From an uncultured Thermoleophilia bacterium (lineage in GTDB: Bacteria; Actinomycetota; Thermoleophilia; UBA2241), in NCBI GenBank assembly GCA_963715985.1, contig CAVQSP010000011.1, forward strand, positions 608,001 through 672,000: DNA of 64,000 bases. The letters run 5' to 3'. Positions within the stretch are counted from its first letter, which is position 1. Each line of letters opens with the position of its first letter. The position numbers and the translations under genes were made by a program. The notes under the pieces were generated by a model, which saw nothing but the letters and a program-made list of their open reading frames with translations, had not been told where the DNA came from and ran no database searches. Positions 2,494 to 13,978 of this stretch are shown piece by piece.

Positions 2494-3606
<1,113 letters not shown>

Positions 3607-3806
3607 GCGCCCTCCGCCGCCCTTCGCTACGAGGTTCGCCTGATCGTGTCGATGGCGCGCCGGCGCCGGCCGGTGCGAAGGGCAGCATGCCCTCCTCCCA
3701 CCAGGGGGCGGCCACAGGGACGCGCCAGAGAACTGCTCCCGATACTAACACCCGGGGCTGCCAGGGGAGGCGCTCGCGCGAGCACTTCGAGTGGGGCCGG
3801 CGGTCA

Positions 3807-3995
3807 GATCTGCGCCACACTCACGCCACCCTCGCGCTCCAGGCCGGCATCCACCCCAAGGTCGTCTCAGAGCGCCTTGGGCACGCCACCGTCTCGATCA
3901 CCCTCGACACCTACTCGCATGCCATCCCGGCGATGCAGGAGGAGGAGGCGGCGCTGATTGCGGGGCTGGTGTTCTCGACGGAACAGGCGAGCTGA
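3807..3995 (+). pseudogene. Tyrosine recombinase C-terminal remnant 2
   Basis: DLRHTHATLALQAGIHPKVVSERLGHATVSITLDTY (LRH, LGH and catalytic Tyr); no N-terminal part upstream. Confidence 0.85.
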
Positions 3996-5091: not shown

Positions 5092-5302
5092 CGGCTTGAG
5101 AGACTCGGCGCAGATGGCACGCACTGAAGACCGGGTCAGCTCAAGGCTATCAGCATCGAGAACCAGGAGAGGCGGCGCCTCGTGCTGGCCAGTGCCGTTG
5201 CGTACCCGGGAGTCTCGGCAGCAACATGTCGGCAATTTTAGCGACGTGGACAAGTTTGCTGCCGAACGCCCCAGCACGAAAGCGCCCTGTGCAGCACAGA
5301 AG

Positions 5303-5378
5303 TGGTGCCCCCGGGCTGGATCGAACAGCCGACACCAGGTTTAGGAAACCTGTGCTCTATCCACTGAGCTACGAGGGC
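5303..5378 (-). tRNA. tRNA-Arg (anticodon CCT)
   Basis: Reverse complement GCCCTCGTAGCTCAGTGGATAGAGCACAGGTTTCCTAAACCTGGTGTCGGCTGTTCGATCCAGCCCGGGGGCACCA: cloverleaf, TTCGA T-loop, CCA end. Confidence 0.96.
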
Positions 5379-5976: not shown

Positions 5977-6270
5977 CTACCGCCTGCGGCTTGCGAGCGC
6001 CACGACGTTGTCGCGGCGCGGCTGAGCGTCCTCGAAGATCTGCTCCTCGGCGCACTCCAATGCGGCCCTCGTGACCTCGTCGAGGCCGGCCTTGGCCTTC
6101 GCCCGCGCGGCGGTGGTGAGGCGCACGTAGCGGCGCAGGGTGGTCGCCGGGCCGGAGTGGCCTAGCCACTCCTGCGCCTGCTTCACGCCGTACTCCTCGC
6201 AAACCGAGGTCCCGAACGAGTCGCGCAGGCCGTGGATCGGCAGGTGCGGGTCGATCCTCTGGCGCGCGAC
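5977..6270 (-). pseudogene. Tyrosine recombinase C-terminal remnant 3 (distinct from remnants 1 and 2)
   Basis: PHLPIHGLRDSFGTSVCEEYGVKQAQEWLGHSGPATTLRRY: HxLR, LGH and Tyr. Confidence 0.7.
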
Positions 6271-6410
6271 CCGATTCCACCACAGACGGGGCCGTCTGCG
6301 TTTGGTGCTTACGCGGACCGTCTGATCCTTGTTAGCGGTACACCGGTCGTGAGGCCAATGTCCACCACTCGGGTGTTGCGCCCGCCGGGCGCACGGGGGA
6401 GACTGTCGAC

Positions 6411-6641
6411 ATGCGCACCACCGATCTCGAGATCGCCAAGCTCTCCCTCGCTGAGCGCATCCAGCTCGCCGAGGACCTCTGGGACAGCGTCGCCGCCGAG
6501 ACCGGTGGGTTGCCGCTCACCGAGGCGCAGACGACGGAGCTCGACCACCGCCTCGCCCAGCTCGCCCGCGATCCTGAGGCCGGCGACCCCTGGGAGGTCG
6601 TGCGCGGGCGCATCCAGGAGCGCCTCGACAAGGCCGGATGA
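6411..6641 (+). CDS. Addiction module antitoxin
   Basis: LSLAERIQLAEDLWDSV..ELDHRL..PWEVV pattern; ATGA overlap with the toxin. Confidence 0.85.
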   Translation: MRTTDLEIAKLSLAERIQLAEDLWDSVAAETGGLPLTEAQTTELDHRLAQLARDPEAGDPWEVVRGRIQERLDKAG

Positions 6642-6940
6642 CCCTGCGCCTCGTCGTCCGCGCGGCCGCCGAGGCGGACGTCCTCGAAGCGGCACTCTGG
6701 TACGAACAGCGCTCCCCAGGTCTCGGCACAGAGTTCCTGCGCGCCGTCGACGTCACCCTCGCCGAGATCGCGCGCATGCCCGAACGCTTCCCGCTCGTCT
6801 ACTGCGAGTCGCGCCGTGCGCTGCTGCGCCGCTTCCCGTATGCCGTCTTCTTCGTCGCCGCTCCCGATCTGGTCAGCGTGGTCGCCTTCATGCACGCGCG
6901 CCGCGACCCACGCCGCTGGGAGGAGCGCGTCGGTGGATGA
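6638..6940 (+). CDS. RelE/ParE family toxin
   Basis: EAALWYEQRSPGLGTEFL, RRALLRRFPYAVFF, HARRDP. Confidence 0.88.
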   Translation: MTLRLVVRAAAEADVLEAALWYEQRSPGLGTEFLRAVDVTLAEIARMPERFPLVYCESRRALLRRFPYAVFFVAAPDLVSVVAFMHARRDPRRWEERVGG

Positions 6941-6941
6941 C

Positions 6942-7028
6942 CGCTAACAAGCGCATCGAGCAGAACGCCACAACGTCTGCCGTGAACCGGCAGGTCAGTC
7001 GCGTCTGCTCATGCACCGGGCGTTAGCG
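6942..7028 (+). repeat. attC site 1 (87 bp)
   Basis: CGCTAAC ... GCAT[C]GAGCAGA[A]CGC ... GCGTCTGCTCATGC ... GTTAGCG; two unpaired bases; starts immediately after the toxin stop. Confidence 0.85.
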
Positions 7029-7047
7029 CCACAGTCCGGAATCGTGC

Positions 7048-7076
7048 TTGTTGCCCAAGCGGAGCTGGGATATACT
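7048..7076 (+). promoter_or_regulatory. Putative sigma70 promoter of mazEF inside the cassette
   Basis: TTGTTG-N17-TATACT upstream of a GGAGG RBS. Confidence 0.5.
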
Positions 7077-7102
7077 TCGGATAGCCTCAGGAGGTGAACC
7101 CG

Positions 7103-7351
7103 ATGATTACCAGAATCCAGAAGTGGGGCAACAGCCAAGGTCTTCGTGTGAGCAAGGAGCTGCTTGCCGATGCCGAGATCGGCGTCGGCGATGCCGTCGA
7201 CGTGGCCGTGCGTGACGGCGCTCTTGTCGTGACGCCGGTCCGTCGCGTACGTGGCGCGCTCGACCTCGCGCAGCTCGTCGCTTCCATTCCCAAGGGCTAC
7301 GAGCCCGGCGAGCTCGACTGGGGACAGCCTGCCGGCCGAGAGGTCTGGTAG
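7103..7351 (+). CDS. mazE: AbrB/MazE family antitoxin
   Basis: IQKWGNSQGLRV, ELDWGQPAGREVW. Confidence 0.9.
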   Translation: MITRIQKWGNSQGLRVSKELLADAEIGVGDAVDVAVRDGALVVTPVRRVRGALDLAQLVASIPKGYEPGELDWGQPAGREVW

Positions 7352-7687
7352 GTGGCGGCCTACGTTCCCCGCAGGGGGGACTTCGTCGCTCTGACCTTCG
7401 ATCCCCAGTCGGGTCACGAGCAGCGTGGGCGCCGACCGGCACTGGTGGTCAGCAACGACCTCTTCAACAAGCACACGGGGTTGTGCATCGCCTGCCCGGT
7501 GACCAATGCCCGGCGCGACTACCCATTCCATGTCTCGGTTCCCGAAGGCTGCGAGGTGACCGGCGTGGTCATGGTCGAGCAGGTCAAGTCGATCGACTTT
7601 CGCGCCCGCAGCGTGAAGCGCATCGCACCGGCTCCGGAGTCGGTTCTGCAGGAGGCGCTGTCGCTGCTCGACGCATGTATCTATTGA
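7352..7687 (+). CDS. mazF: PemK/MazF family toxin
   Basis: YVPRRGD, FDPQSGHEQRGRRPALVVS, QVKSIDFRAR. Confidence 0.92.
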   Translation: MAAYVPRRGDFVALTFDPQSGHEQRGRRPALVVSNDLFNKHTGLCIACPVTNARRDYPFHVSVPEGCEVTGVVMVEQVKSIDFRARSVKRIAPAPESVLQEALSLLDACIY

Positions 7688-7688
7688 G

Positions 7689-7748
7689 CGCCAACAAGCA
7701 CATCGAGCAGATGCGCTTCGCGCACGGCTCATGTGCCAGCCGTTGGGC
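7689..7748 (+). repeat. attC site 2 (60 bp)
   Basis: CGCCAAC AA GCACAT[C]GAGC..TGCGC TTC GCGCA..GCTCATGTGC CAGCC GTTGGGC; similar to attC 1; follows the mazF stop. Confidence 0.82.
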
Positions 7749-7774
7749 CCTGGAAGTGCAGAGAGGAGAGCACG

Positions 7775-8119
7775 ATGAGCAACGAACAGCCGGCACCTGA
7801 GACGAAAGGTGTCACGGCGAAGTTGCTGGCGACGGTCGACCTCGGCCCGGAGATCGAGGGCATGGCGGGACGCCAGCTTCGCATGCGCATGGTGACCTTC
7901 GAGCCTGGAGGCGTCTTCGGCCCGGTCCACGACCACAAGGGCAGGCCAGGCACCGTCTACATCCTGCAAGGAACGATCACCGACCATCGAGACGGAGTCG
8001 CTACGGACTACGGGCCGGGAGTGGGCTGGCCCGAGGACAGGAACACCACACACTGGCTTGAGAACAGAGGAACGACTCCGGCGGTGGAGATCTCGGTCGA
8101 CATAGTCGGGCACGAGTAA
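7775..8119 (+). CDS. Cupin domain protein
   Basis: GGAG RBS; PGG..HDHKGRPG..YILQG..HWLEN cupin motifs. Confidence 0.8.
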   Translation: MSNEQPAPETKGVTAKLLATVDLGPEIEGMAGRQLRMRMVTFEPGGVFGPVHDHKGRPGTVYILQGTITDHRDGVATDYGPGVGWPEDRNTTHWLENRGTTPAVEISVDIVGHE

Positions 8120-8217
8120 GCTCAGGCCCGACGTCAAGGGTGGTCGGGGGACGTCGATCTGCTCCTCCGGCGAAATCGTAGCACAGGGGCCGGCGGCCGG
8201 CGGCGGTGGCCGCCGCC

Positions 8218-9459
8218 TCAAGCCCACAGGGTGCTGATGGGGAGTGCCGACAGCCGGTCACCCAGCGCGTACGGCCGTGGTCCGGTGTGCAGGACGACGC
8301 CGGCGATGAAGCGGTCTCCGAGCTCGTCGCGAAGCCACGCGAGATGGCGCGCGCTGCGCACGGTCGGAGCCGCCTCAGCCTTCACCTCGACGCCGATGAC
8401 CCGACCGTCTGCGGCCTCCAGGACAATGTCCATCTCGTGCCGACCCTGCTGCTGCCGCAGGTGATACGCGCGGAGCCGGGACGCGCTCACCGAGATCTCA
8501 CCTCGGATTTGCGCCATGACGAAGGAATCCAGGATCCGCCCGAGCAGATCCCCGTCGCGCATCACCCCGTCGGTGTCCACCCGAAGCGCAGCGCTCACCA
8601 GGCCCGGGTCGACGACGTAGCGTTTGGGCGAGCGAGCCAGGCGCTTCAACCGATTGGTCATCCACGCAGGAACAGCCTCCACGACGAACAGATTCGTGAA
8701 CAGCCGGTCGTAGGCCGCCGCGGTCCTGGCGTTGATGCCTGCGGCATCGTAGAGCGTCTTGTCCTCCACGACTCCGGCCGTGTTCGAGGCCAGCGCTTCG
8801 AAGTAGCGCCGCAGCCGCACGGGGTCGCGGTCGCCCGCGACCTGGGAGGCATCGCGCGTCAGGATCTGGTCGAGGTAGCCGTCCAGCCAGCGGCGCCTGG
8901 CAGTAGCGCGCAGGTGTAAGACCGGACTCGGGAACGACCCGGCGAGCGCCATCTCCACGTAGCCCCGTAAGTCAGGCGGGTCGGCCGGAGTCCGCGCAGC
9001 CGCTTCGACGCCCTCGGCCGCGATCCGCTCGAAGAGCCCGGGTCCGTCAACGCTGCCGAGGACCTCGCGCCCAACCAGCCCGGACAAGGCGACTCTGGTC
9101 AGGCGGCCCGTGCCCGGCCACGTCTCAGCCTCGAGGTCGGCGCGGACCGAGCCGGTCAGCAAGTAGCGGCCGGGCCGCGGATCGTCGTCCACCGCCCTCT
9201 TGAGCGCGCCGAGGACCGAGGGCACGGCCTGCCACTCGTCCAGGAGGACGGGCTCCGGCAGGCCGCGCAGAGCGACGTCCGGATCGGCGCGGAAGGCGGC
9301 CGCCTCCGCATCGCGGTCGAGGCGAATGACCGTCCGGGCGAATCGCCGGGCCGTGGTGGTCTTGCCCACGGCTCGCGGACCCACGATCAGGATCGCCGGC
9401 AGTTCCTGAAGGAGCTCGGCCAGAAGAGCATCGAGGAGTCTGTCTCGATACGAGACCAT
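8218..9459 (-). CDS. AAA_14 ATPase with C-terminal DUF4143 domain
   Basis: Walker A GPRAVGKTT, Walker B LLDEWQ, LLTGS, PKRYVVDPG, EMD..VEVK. Confidence 0.88.
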   Translation of the reverse strand: MVSYRDRLLDALLAELLQELPAILIVGPRAVGKTTTARRFARTVIRLDRDAEAAAFRADPDVALRGLPEPVLLDEWQAVPSVLGALKRAVDDDPRPGRYLLTGSVRADLEAETWPGTGRLTRVALSGLVGREVLGSVDGPGLFERIAAEGVEAAARTPADPPDLRGYVEMALAGSFPSPVLHLRATARRRWLDGYLDQILTRDASQVAGDRDPVRLRRYFEALASNTAGVVEDKTLYDAAGINARTAAAYDRLFTNLFVVEAVPAWMTNRLKRLARSPKRYVVDPGLVSAALRVDTDGVMRDGDLLGRILDSFVMAQIRGEISVSASRLRAYHLRQQQGRHEMDIVLEAADGRVIGVEVKAEAAPTVRSARHLAWLRDELGDRFIAGVVLHTGPRPYALGDRLSALPISTLWA

Positions 9460-11618: not shown

Positions 11619-13978
11619 ATGACAACTGCGGAGCCGGCGGGCAAGGAGAGGGCAGACACGGTGCACACCTGGCGCTCGCTGCCGTGGGTGACGATCGCCT
11701 TCCTGGTCACGGGAGGGTCGGTAGCGCTCGCGGCCGCGGCCGGACTGTTCGGCCCCTACGAATCCGCGGCCATCTTCGGCATCGCGAGCGCGACGCTGAC
11801 CGCCCTCGTCGTCTCGACGTGGGTGCGCAAGCCGTCGCGCGTGTGGCCGTGGGCCTGCATCGCCGCGTCGTTCGCGCTCTTCCTGGCCGGAGGCGTGGTC
11901 CGCGCCTACCTGCAGACGGTCGGCGACCTCACCACAAGCCGCTCCATCATTCCCGATCTCATCGTCCTCCCCGGGTACGCCCTGCTCGGGGCGGGCCTGC
12001 TCGGCTTCTGGAGGCGCGGCGCCCGGGGGTCCCTGCGCCGGTCCAGCGTCTTCCTCGACGGCCTCATCGCGGCGCTCGCCCTCGCCGCGGTCTCCTGGGT
12101 GTTCGTGGTCGAGCCCGTGCTCGCTCAGGGCGACGTGCCGCTCTCGCGTGAAGCTGATCATGATCGCCTACCCCTCCATGTCCATCTTCCTGGTCGTGCG
12201 TCGCGCTGCGCATCGCCCTGAACCCGGAGCGGTCGCCGGTGCCGGCCTTCTGGCTGCTGCTGGCCGCCATGATGTCGCTGTTCGTCGGCGACGCGCTGTA
12301 CCTGCTCGCCGACCTCAGCCTGGTCGAGATACCCGCACAGCTGCTCGACCTGCCCTACGCGTTCGCCTACCTGTTCGCCGGAGCCGGCGCCCTGCACCCG
12401 TCTATGCGCTCGCTCACGGAGCCCGGGCATGGCCAGCGCATGACGGAGTCGCGGCTGCGCATCGCCGTCGTCGGGGTGGCCCTCCTCATCCCCGCGGTGC
12501 TCACGCTCGCGTACACCAGCGACGTGCCGCGCGACCGGGCCGTCCTGAGCATGCTCATGATCGTCCTGACCGGGGCGGCCGTCCTGCGCATCGTGCAGGC
12601 GCTCCAGACCGCGGAGCGTTCCGAGGCGCGCCTCGTCTTCCAGGCGCACCACGACAGCCTCACCGGCCTGCCCAACCGCAGGATGATGGAGGAGCACCTC
12701 AGCCCGCCTCCTCGCAGAAGACCCCCGTGGACCGCACCCACGTCGCGCTCCTGTACCTTGACCTCGACCGCTTCAAGCTGGTCAACGACACGCTGGGGCA
12801 CACACGGGGCGACGAGCTCCTCGATCGAGGTGGCCGAGCGCCTGCGCGCAGCGCGTGAGGCCGACAGACCTCGTGACCCGCATCGGCGGCGACGAGTTCA
12901 TGATCGTGCTCAATCAGGGTGGTCAACGTGTCGCAGGCGGTGGACCTCGCCAACCGCCTGCGCGACAGTCTCACGGCGCCGTTCATCGTCAAAGGGCATG
13001 ACGTTCTACCTCTCGGCGAGCATCGGCCTGGCGTTCGCCTCCGGTGACGACCCATCCGCAACGGCGGAGGCGCTGGTCCGCGACGCCGACACGGCCATGT
13101 ACCAGGCCAAGGACGCCGGCCGAGACGCCGTCGCCGTGTTCGACCAGTCCATGCGCGACAAGGTCGAGGAGCGCGTGGAGCTCGAGCGCGACCTGCACTT
13201 CGCCGTCTCGATGGCCCAGTTGCATCTCGTATACCAGCCCATCGTGCGGCTGCCGCACGGCAGCGTCGCCGGCATGGAGGCGCTGGTCCGCTGGGCGCAC
13301 CCGACTCACGGCGTCATCACGCCCGCCAAGTTCATCCGCTCTTGCCGAGGAGGCCGGCCTCATCTCGGAGATCGGCGACTGGGTGCTGGAGGAGTCCGTG
13401 CGGCAGTTCGCGGCCTGGCGCCGCCAGGTCCCGTGGATGGCCGATCTGTACATCTCCGTCAATCTCTCCGGGCGCGCAGCTGCACGACGACCACCTCGTC
13501 CAGCGCGTGGCGGACATCCTCACCCTCCACGGGCTCGACGGCTCGTCTCTCTGCCTCGAGCTCACCGAGTCGGTCGTCATGCAGGATCCCGTCTCTGCCG
13601 CGGCCACGCTCGGCGGAGCTCCGCGGCCTCGGCGTACAACTCGCCATCGACGACTTCGGCTCCGAGTACTCGTCCCTCGCTTACCTCAAGCGGTTCCCGG
13701 TCTCGGTGCTCAAGATCGACAAGTCCTTCGTGGTCAGCCTGGCGCACAAGGACAGCGCCGACGCCACGCTCATCGCGACCATCGTCGCCATGGCGCGGGC
13801 GCTGGGGATCACCACGGTGGCGGAGGGCGTCGAGACGCGCTCCCAGGCCGACCATCTGACGACGCTGGGCTGCGACTCCGCGCAGGGCTTCATGTACTCG
13901 CGTCCGGTCGGCCCGGACCGCCTGGTAGAGGTGGTGTCCTCGCTGGGCACCCACCGTCTCCACCTCGTCCGCGATTGA
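11619..13978 (+). CDS. Membrane-bound GGDEF-EAL protein (several frameshifts)
   Basis: Multi-TM N-terminus; HDSLTGLPNRR, DLDRFKLVND, RPTD..RIGGDEF, GMEALVRW, DDFGSEYSS, AEGVET across ORFs 11547, 12148, 12239, 13044, 13342. Confidence 0.85.

Follow-up and report, generated by a model that had tools for sequence, protein, structure and literature searches.

An uncultured bacterium labelled Thermoleophilia (GenBank assembly GCA_963715985.1) carries, in the 64,000-nt stretch analysed here (the window: contig CAVQSP010000011.1, positions 608,001 to 672,000 of the forward strand), a run of short genes separated by what look like attC recombination sites. How would an integron cassette array come to stand in an actinobacterial genome, and what would have brought it there? 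A first-pass annotation, made from the sequence alone, had claimed such an array at window positions 6331–8135. Our analysis gives a probability of about 0.85 that window 6283–8150 is a small integron array, an attI-type site followed by three cassettes. Its cargo is very likely two toxin-antitoxin pairs and one cupin, with two full attC sites and one vestigial attC as borders, and there are good grounds to place the array within an integron system specific to one lineage, an uncultured Actinomycetota genus. The features of the array are as follows.

6283–6333, plus strand: attI-type site, ending in CTTG↓TT (nhmmer profile 36.0 bits, E 2e-8)
6332–7022, plus strand: cassette 1, with an antitoxin gene (6411–6641), a ParE-family toxin gene (6638–6940) and attC 1
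6942–7028, plus strand: attC 1, 87 nt, CGCTAAC...GTTAGCG (model R1, 61.1 bits, E 1.8e-12)
7023–7742, plus strand: cassette 2, with a mazE-like gene (7094–7351), a mazF/pemK-like gene (7352–7687) and attC 2
7689–7748, plus strand: attC 2, 60 nt, CGCCAAC...GTTGGGC (model R1, 41.2 bits, E 1.2e-7)
7743–8143, plus strand: cassette 3, with a cupin gene (7775–8119) and a vestigial attC
8125–8150, plus strand: vestigial attC 3, GGCCCGAC, 10 nt, GTCGGGGG, read from the sequence

Sites and cassettes of the array

The attC sites were assessed with a covariance model, R1, built from 14 hand-cut sites downstream of the integron integrase gene that the same genome carries on another contig, C14 (the contig of the window being C11), with bottom strands aligned and 20 pairs. 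Run over the whole window without filters, this model, made from the C14 sites alone, accepted both sites with exactly the coordinates proposed in the first-pass annotation, which had named a covariance model as the way to check them; the third of the 64 listed matches in the window has 19.9 bits (E 0.017). That match, at 12577–12659 and far from any array, is probably due to chance. On the 14 C14 sites, 86.1% of the cells are paired as against 26–39% with the partners slid, and the covariation score is 0.262 as against 0.163 for shuffled alignments, none of 500 shuffles being as high. The R helix is 76.8% and the L helix 92.3% paired, and in the latter 6 of 12 inner pairs are changed on both sides.

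In the window, both sites start 1 nt past a stop codon (TGA 6938–6940 and TGA 7685–7687) and have the core ends AAC and GTT, within CGCTAAC/GTTAGCG and CGCCAAC/GTTGGGC, as had been noted before. The bottom strand folds better than the top strand at attC 1 (−27.7 vs −23.8 kcal/mol) and at attC 2 (−17.9 vs −17.1 kcal/mol), with z-scores of −5.13 and a modest −2.85, respectively. Each bottom-strand fold has one bulged G, and this bulged G is invariant in the 14 aligned C14 sites. An extrahelical G and T had been proposed for attC 1; the G is indeed bulged, but the minimum-energy fold has its Ts in G-T pairs. The window contains 2 occurrences of a 19-mer common to the two sites, where 0.03 would be expected (none of 100 shuffles had 2), and further copies in the genome itself and in its relatives bear out the earlier suggestion that the shared motif marks a lineage-specific family.

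Model R1 was also applied to 80 loci, the surroundings of IntI relatives from named genomes, and gave 46 matches, all of them downstream of the integrase and on its strand. Ten loci labelled Actinomycetota hold 37 of these; the other 9 are in 8 loci of other phyla, labelled Acidobacterium, Gemmatimonadaceae, Chromatiales, Cyanobium, Neomarinimicrobiota, Lentisphaeria or Planctomycetia. The model detects more than a local repeat. The third site, which had been described as eroded near 8125, stands in part: an 8-nt inverted repeat is present (8125–8132/8143–8150), but model R1 finds no match there and the fold is no better than that of shuffled sequences (z −0.16). Two relatives retain the perfect form, GGCCCGAC-N10-GTCGGGCC, behind the cupin gene, of which the window form is a worn version, and we read the site, on these comparisons, as a probable attC without its inner part.

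All five short plus-strand genes within 6331–8150 score above their Pfam cut-offs. In cassette 1 these are Unstab_antitox (58.4 bits) and ParE_toxin (25.2 bits, cut-off 23), in cassette 2 MazE_antitoxin (26.4 bits) and PemK_toxin (95.8 bits), and in cassette 3 Cupin_2 (41.8 bits); the first two cassettes thus hold adjoining small genes matching the families of type II toxin-antitoxin systems (ParE family and MazEF), as predicted by Pfam. The start of each cassette complements its own attC end, at 7 of 7 positions in cassette 1, 6 of 7 in cassette 2 and 7 of 8 in cassette 3. The earlier reading had this right for the first two: GTTAGCG at 6331–6337 is the exact complement of CGCTAAC, and the start of cassette 2 differs by 1 base from the complement of its end. 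Three C14 cassettes have, by eye, a perfect complement over 8 nt.

The cassettes behave as units, with the same ends in the arrays of relatives and with matches that break at the borders. Cassette 1 stands also in the middle of an array in the related genome G017, flanked by attC sites and with the same ends (window 6331 and 7026), and cassette 2 recurs in G019 with its own attC (window 7026–7704, 80% identity). The cupin block (approximately window 7746–8148) is 85–93% identical in the 7 relatives fetched, the similarity beginning at the cassette border, and in G013 an attC lies directly 5' of it. Contigs of four wetland metagenome runs lose the match at 6331, 7022–7024, 7741–7747 and 8107–8135; these breakpoints come from contigs and speak for differing contexts, nothing beyond. 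In the same four runs, which were chosen by their match to the stretch, the summed contig depth of the cupin cassette (window 7699–8182) is in the thousands and that of the flanks in the tens, and many different sequences join it at 7741–7747. Contig depths are sums and the cupin depth was left out of the ranking; a widespread cupin cassette is only a lead.

The insertion site at the head of the array was identified with an nhmmer profile made from 16 attI-type sites that all lie outside the window. In the 4.35-Mb genome this profile has two good matches, C14:331882–331937 (36.1 bits) and window 6283–6333; the next has an E value of 0.46. The 54–56-nt motif lies 66–155 nt past the end of the IntI match in the loci of four relatives (L019, L020, L023 and L101) and 640 nt past it on C14, with a BrnT/BrnA pair between, and it heads the array in G017. 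A strict regular expression for the motif matched 6 of 21 IntI or array loci, and the claim is limited to those 6. In the window the crossover falls between G6331 and T6332. The window's variant of the site is found in 11 copies, and the sequence 3' of the conserved G is different in all 11; in 9 of them the G is followed by TT and purines, like cassette starts. In 8 copies attC sites come next on that strand; in a ninth the evidence for them is weak. By this evidence the window array has what appears to be its own attI-type insertion site, which IntI would be expected to use.

The integron on contig C14 and its spread in the genus

The first-pass annotation had found no intI in the window, and this holds, the TIGR02249 (integron integrase) matches on C11 being at 128–129 kb of the contig and the window at 608–672 kb; it had also proposed a search for intI, which finds the gene in this genome, on C14, and in relatives. 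The C14 match (C14:330697–331242) has 272.7 bits, or 274.9 in another run, against a cut-off of 265 that none of the 14 control genomes reaches. It covers model positions 130–311, which include the integron-specific region, and the N-terminal part of the protein gives 135.2 bits in another frame. The whole gene, at approximately C14:330254–331290 (L017:1254–2290) on the plus strand, has the catalytic motifs. It is followed by the BrnT/BrnA pair, the attI-type site at 331882–331937 and 18 attC (E<0.001) reaching 350421, all on the plus strand and co-oriented with intI. The cassettes between them hold more toxin-antitoxin pairs and small enzymes, a typical integron content. The C14 locus therefore holds intI, attI and attC together, with intI in three frames, and the window has attI and attC without intI, which is less than a complete integron. 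By the rules of IntegronFinder the window array is an attC cluster without an integron integrase (CALIN), with at least two attC and no integron integrase nearby.

Some matches of the same model stand apart from these arrays: a lone attC of the same family on contig C20 (254003–254089, 61.1 bits), and two weak matches on the opposite strand of C14 (179300–179386 and 179892–179972; 28.9 and 24.2 bits). These could represent additional orphan cassettes.

The host is an actinobacterium of the phylum Actinomycetota, and its class label is uncertain. The rpoB gene on the window's contig is 90% identical to that of a metagenome-assembled genome (MAG) labelled Actinomycetes, 87% to one labelled Thermoleophilia and 69% to a genome labelled Coriobacteriaceae, the MAG labels being the submitters' own, and the G+C content is 69–71% in all 22 contigs. 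With model R1 accepting the attC sites and rpoB confirming the phylum, the earlier claim of a cassette array in an actinobacterial genome is sustained in both its parts. WhiB (PF02467) was tried as a phylum marker for this lineage and failed: it was found neither in the genome itself nor in the 31 genomes of the genus and class (0 of 31). It is useful at phylum level only, being present in 44 of the 80 genomes sampled elsewhere in the phylum (41 of 77 without the unpublished G075, G119 and G091) and, among the 14 controls, only in Corynebacterium.

How far does the system extend? IntI is present in 15 of 24 sampled relatives of the genus (E≤1e-30), in 12 of them above the cut-off; none was found in 16 class members that belong to other families. 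In the phylum at large it was found in 24 of 400 other sampled species-level genomes, MAGs included (E≤1e-40; 22 of 398 without the unpublished G151 and G212). Of 53 genus genomes, 46 have the attC family, and a single genome yields as many as 59 matches among the candidates scored, at most 80 per genome. A tree of 87 integrase segments, made by a quick method on 182 columns, clusters the genome's own protein with 5 relatives of the genus (support 98), and its 17 Actinomycetota rows need 2 label changes, compared with 15.7 when labels are shuffled.

The tRNA-Arg(CCT) island and competing explanations

To the left of the attI-type site are two features that bear on how the array came to its present place.

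5303–5378, minus strand: tRNA-Arg(CCT) (ARAGORN), the predicted target of the island carrying the array
5977–6282, minus strand: remnant of rec433, a phage-type tyrosine integrase; last 101 of 433 residues and the stop codon

The remnant is 85% identical to residues 333–433 of full-length rec433 (tblastn); its PF00589 score is 26.5 bits, that of the full protein 78.3 bits. TIGR02249, in contrast to its match with the C14 gene, gives full rec433 28.6 bits over 57 C-terminal residues only, and neither the full protein nor the remnant attains the cut-off. By these comparisons rec433 is not an IntI. It is the integrase of an island that targets tRNA-Arg(CCT). Among the 53 genus genomes, 22 contain it, often with more than one copy, and decay of the copies is common. 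The copies resemble one another exactly over the interval that opens at the rec433 stop codon and closes at the G↓TT of attI. For 9 attI copies at least 1 kb of the upstream sequence is available; rec433 adjoins 6 of these (3 full-length, 1 near-full, 2 remnants) and is absent beside the other 3. The 51 nt that make up the site in the window lie, in relatives, 110–190 nt upstream of the start codon of intact rec433, with the same final G and with other cassettes next to it.

The sister species (locus L124) has the order tRNA-Arg(CCT), intact rec433, attI and 3 attC, with cassettes other than those of the window array, in an island bounded by a 93-nt direct repeat (99% identical, copies 6743 bp apart) that begins in the anticodon loop and spans the tRNA's 5' half. 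In the window the tRNA and the order of the elements agree with this, except that only the end of rec433 is left and the first ~5 nt of attI are gone, apparently lost in the deletion that joined attI to the integrase remnant. Because L124 holds an intact equivalent with the same tRNA and order, we consider it highly probable that the window array is cargo of a decayed tRNA-Arg(CCT) island and not a stray insertion. In two further relatives (G014, contig C273, locus L107; G058, contig C31, locus L106) a recombinase remnant adjoins the cupin cassette, and cassettes 1 and 2 are absent; a worn attC 3' end precedes the cupin gene there, and the recombinase breakpoints differ from those of the window. 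An empty site was sought by synteny across the genus, where the region proved too variable, G014 and G058 having these other breakpoints.

In the mechanism that we propose, IntI would excise a cassette as a circle by recombination of attC with attC, the sites being read as folded bottom strands, and the circle would re-enter at the G↓TT of attI; toxin-antitoxin cassettes would stabilise the array. Recombination at the window array would have to come in trans from the C14 integrase, since this is the sole integron integrase of the genome, and the window array may now be static.

Could the array have arisen without an attI of its own, either by IntI insertion at an attG-type site in the recombinase gene or as a rearranged piece of the C14 array? 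Such a CALIN would account for the absence of intI within 4 kb and for a left junction placed precisely at G↓TT, next to a broken recombinase gene, and both origins are named for CALINs in the parts available to us of PMC4889954 and of the preprint 10.1101/2022.09.11.507474. It could also point to cassette 1, which has 98.8% identity with the first C14 cassette across 644 bp (window 6328–6971 vs C14:331932–332575; 1 mismatch through the stop codon), the similarity beginning at CTTG↓TT and fading within attC. However, the C14 flank to the left of this common cassette is unlike that of the window beyond CTTG, and the 51 nt left of the junction are non-coding for the recombinase, match the attI profile (E 2e-8) and stand, in relatives, upstream of the start codon of an intact rec433. 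A cassette inserted in recombinase coding sequence at a secondary site was thus dropped as an account of the left junction, these 51 nt being an attI-type site. An attG insertion has an ordinary flank with a loose GWT, and here a conserved attI-family site forms the left flank. An array without attI is already disfavoured and very unlikely. It is also very unlikely that rec433, not IntI, recombines at this attI variant, in which case a second class of integron would work without IntI and the copy in the window would be a dead example of it, its integrase cut to 101 residues. The layout of integrase, attI on the other strand and cassettes, seen in 6 of 9 attI copies, is the classical one, copies are alike exactly from the rec433 stop codon to G↓TT, and G015, which is 93% complete, has rec433, attI and attC arrays with no IntI match at E≤1e-30.

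Several points speak against such a role for rec433. Since the integron-integrase model covers only the 57 C-terminal residues (28.6 bits), rec433 would lack the IntI-specific insert, which reportedly reads the extrahelical bases in the structure of VchIntIA with attC. The conserved blocks of the attI variant are common to IntI-linked attI sites, rec433 is not near 3 of the 9 attI copies, and an ordinary job for it is at hand in the sister-species island bounded by repeats of half a tRNA. As for the attC sites, they might have been ordinary hairpins behind genes, or a local repeat family behind toxin-antitoxin operons, and they do lie just past stop codons, are GC-rich palindromes and include one with a modest fold z-score (attC 2, −2.85). 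That explanation is already refuted: in this genome and numerous others the family forms arrays next to integron integrases, on the expected strand each time, the cassette starts complement their own ends, the stems covary and the bulged G is invariant.

An attI-led array of the genus-wide integron system, carried by a decayed island, is accordingly the interpretation that we prefer, and the following observations weigh against it. The C14 intI is in three frames, with changes near C14:330697 and C14:331230, which may reflect either true decay or an error of assembly. With the assembly at 88.8% completeness and 7.29% contamination, C11 and C14 could belong to two close strains. The attC of cassette 1 is unlike that of its near-identical C14 copy, and because these sites differ a simple cassette transfer does not account for the pair; the pattern suggests gene conversion of the coding part, or attC exchange. 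The tRNA 5' half has no duplicate within the window; the far end of the island would therefore have been lost, and it is the sister species that supports the reading as an island. The interval 6200–8300 has 0 sigma-70-like promoters, compared with 0.1 expected. Finally, the status of the sites as canonical attC depends on model R1 and structural features instead of on the model of IntegronFinder; Rfam, to our knowledge, has no attC family.

Two side observations bear on these points. An AT-richer patch lies before mazE, by eye only. Two Xer-like recombinase matches, at C20:60055–60876 and C14:807710–808531, one of them at a contig end, score identically; this points to redundant stretches in the assembly, in agreement with the contamination of 7.29%.

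Known integrons and neighbouring features

The kind of system is known: it is an inverted-integrase integron, of which Treponema denticola has the classic example, and the window array is a CALIN by the rules of IntegronFinder. New are the lineage, the attC and attI site families, and the apparent island that carries an array without an integron integrase. As in other inverted-integrase integrons, intI is on the cassette strand with attI and the array past its 3' end, the integron-specific region of TIGR02249 is present, the attC are similar within the lineage and many cassettes are toxin-antitoxin pairs or small enzymes. Unlike in those, the host is of another phylum, the attC and attI families are its own, extra attI-led arrays lie away from intI, and intI is in three frames. 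Integrons carried by other mobile elements are familiar from class 1 integrons on Tn402-type transposons and from SGI1, which have their own intI. Here too a cassette platform would ride on an element moved by its own recombinase, but the island has attI and cassettes without intI, and its integrase would target the anticodon loop of tRNA-Arg(CCT) and duplicate the tRNA 5' half.

The co-orientation of integrase and cassettes as the mark of the inverted-integrase layout is described in the accessible portion of PMC13323075. The window array resembles the CALINs of PMC4889954, as far as its available text describes them, in being small, with at least two attC, no intI within 4 kb and an IntI elsewhere in the genome; it differs in being headed by an attI-type site inside an island with an unrelated integrase, and that same portion of the text describes no CALIN with attI. 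Insertion of cassettes at loose GWT sites is reported in the available part of the preprint by Loot et al. (10.1101/2022.09.11.507474), and such attG insertions and single attC sites lacking an integron integrase (SALINs) share with the window the placement of cassettes outside a main integron and a G followed by the cassette's TT. The target here is instead conserved and 54 nt long, belongs to the attI family, and has served different cassettes in its 11 copies. For a sedentary chromosomal integron, Cury (2016), in the part at hand, requires more than 19 attC or presence in every genome of a species; the corresponding figures are 18 attC on C14, up to 59 matches in relatives, and IntI in 15 of 24 genus genomes.

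Surveys of complete genomes, by the portions of PMC4889954 and PMC9024848 available to us, found Actinobacteria to have no complete integron, a gap that they described as intriguing, and a 2026 permafrost study (PMC13323075, again in part) writes of a 'virtual absence' of integrons in Actinomycetota; Ghaly (2021), as far as the text at hand goes, lists Actinobacteriota among the phyla with detected integrons. The first-pass annotation had asked whether the contig might belong to a phylum in which integrons are common, and the survey in PMC9024848, in its available part, places its host phylum among those without a complete integron. Its statement that integrons are very rare in Actinobacteria is right for cultured complete genomes but does not extend to a sample that includes MAGs, with IntI in 24 of 400. 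Among the titles and abstract openings searched, neither a native Actinomycetota integron with its own attC or attI family nor an attI-led array carried by a tRNA island was found.

What would follow from these findings? A whole uncultured genus appears to carry inverted-integrase integrons with their own attC and attI families, and because of this genus-wide occurrence and of the IntI in 24 of 400 sampled species of the phylum, the actinobacterial gap looks like a bias to cultured lineages and not like a barrier. The attI sequence family opens these integrons to bench tests. An island with attI and cassettes and without intI suggests a route by which arrays could move without an integrase of their own; if this is true, many 'orphan' arrays may be cargo rather than debris.

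The surroundings of the tRNA hold further traces of mobile DNA. A 97-bp repeat (96.9% identity) is present at window 5257–5353 and 6.8 kb leftward at C11:606415–606511; it comprises the 3' half of the tRNA-Arg and the downstream flank and is probably the mark of a second island in the usual orientation. Another integrase C-terminal remnant is readable at approximately window 3800–3995 on the plus strand. Further left, window 2494–3606 on the minus strand is a sigma-70-family gene whose 5' 550 bp match several places per genus genome at 73–81% identity; these matches are paralogues and not a mobile element.

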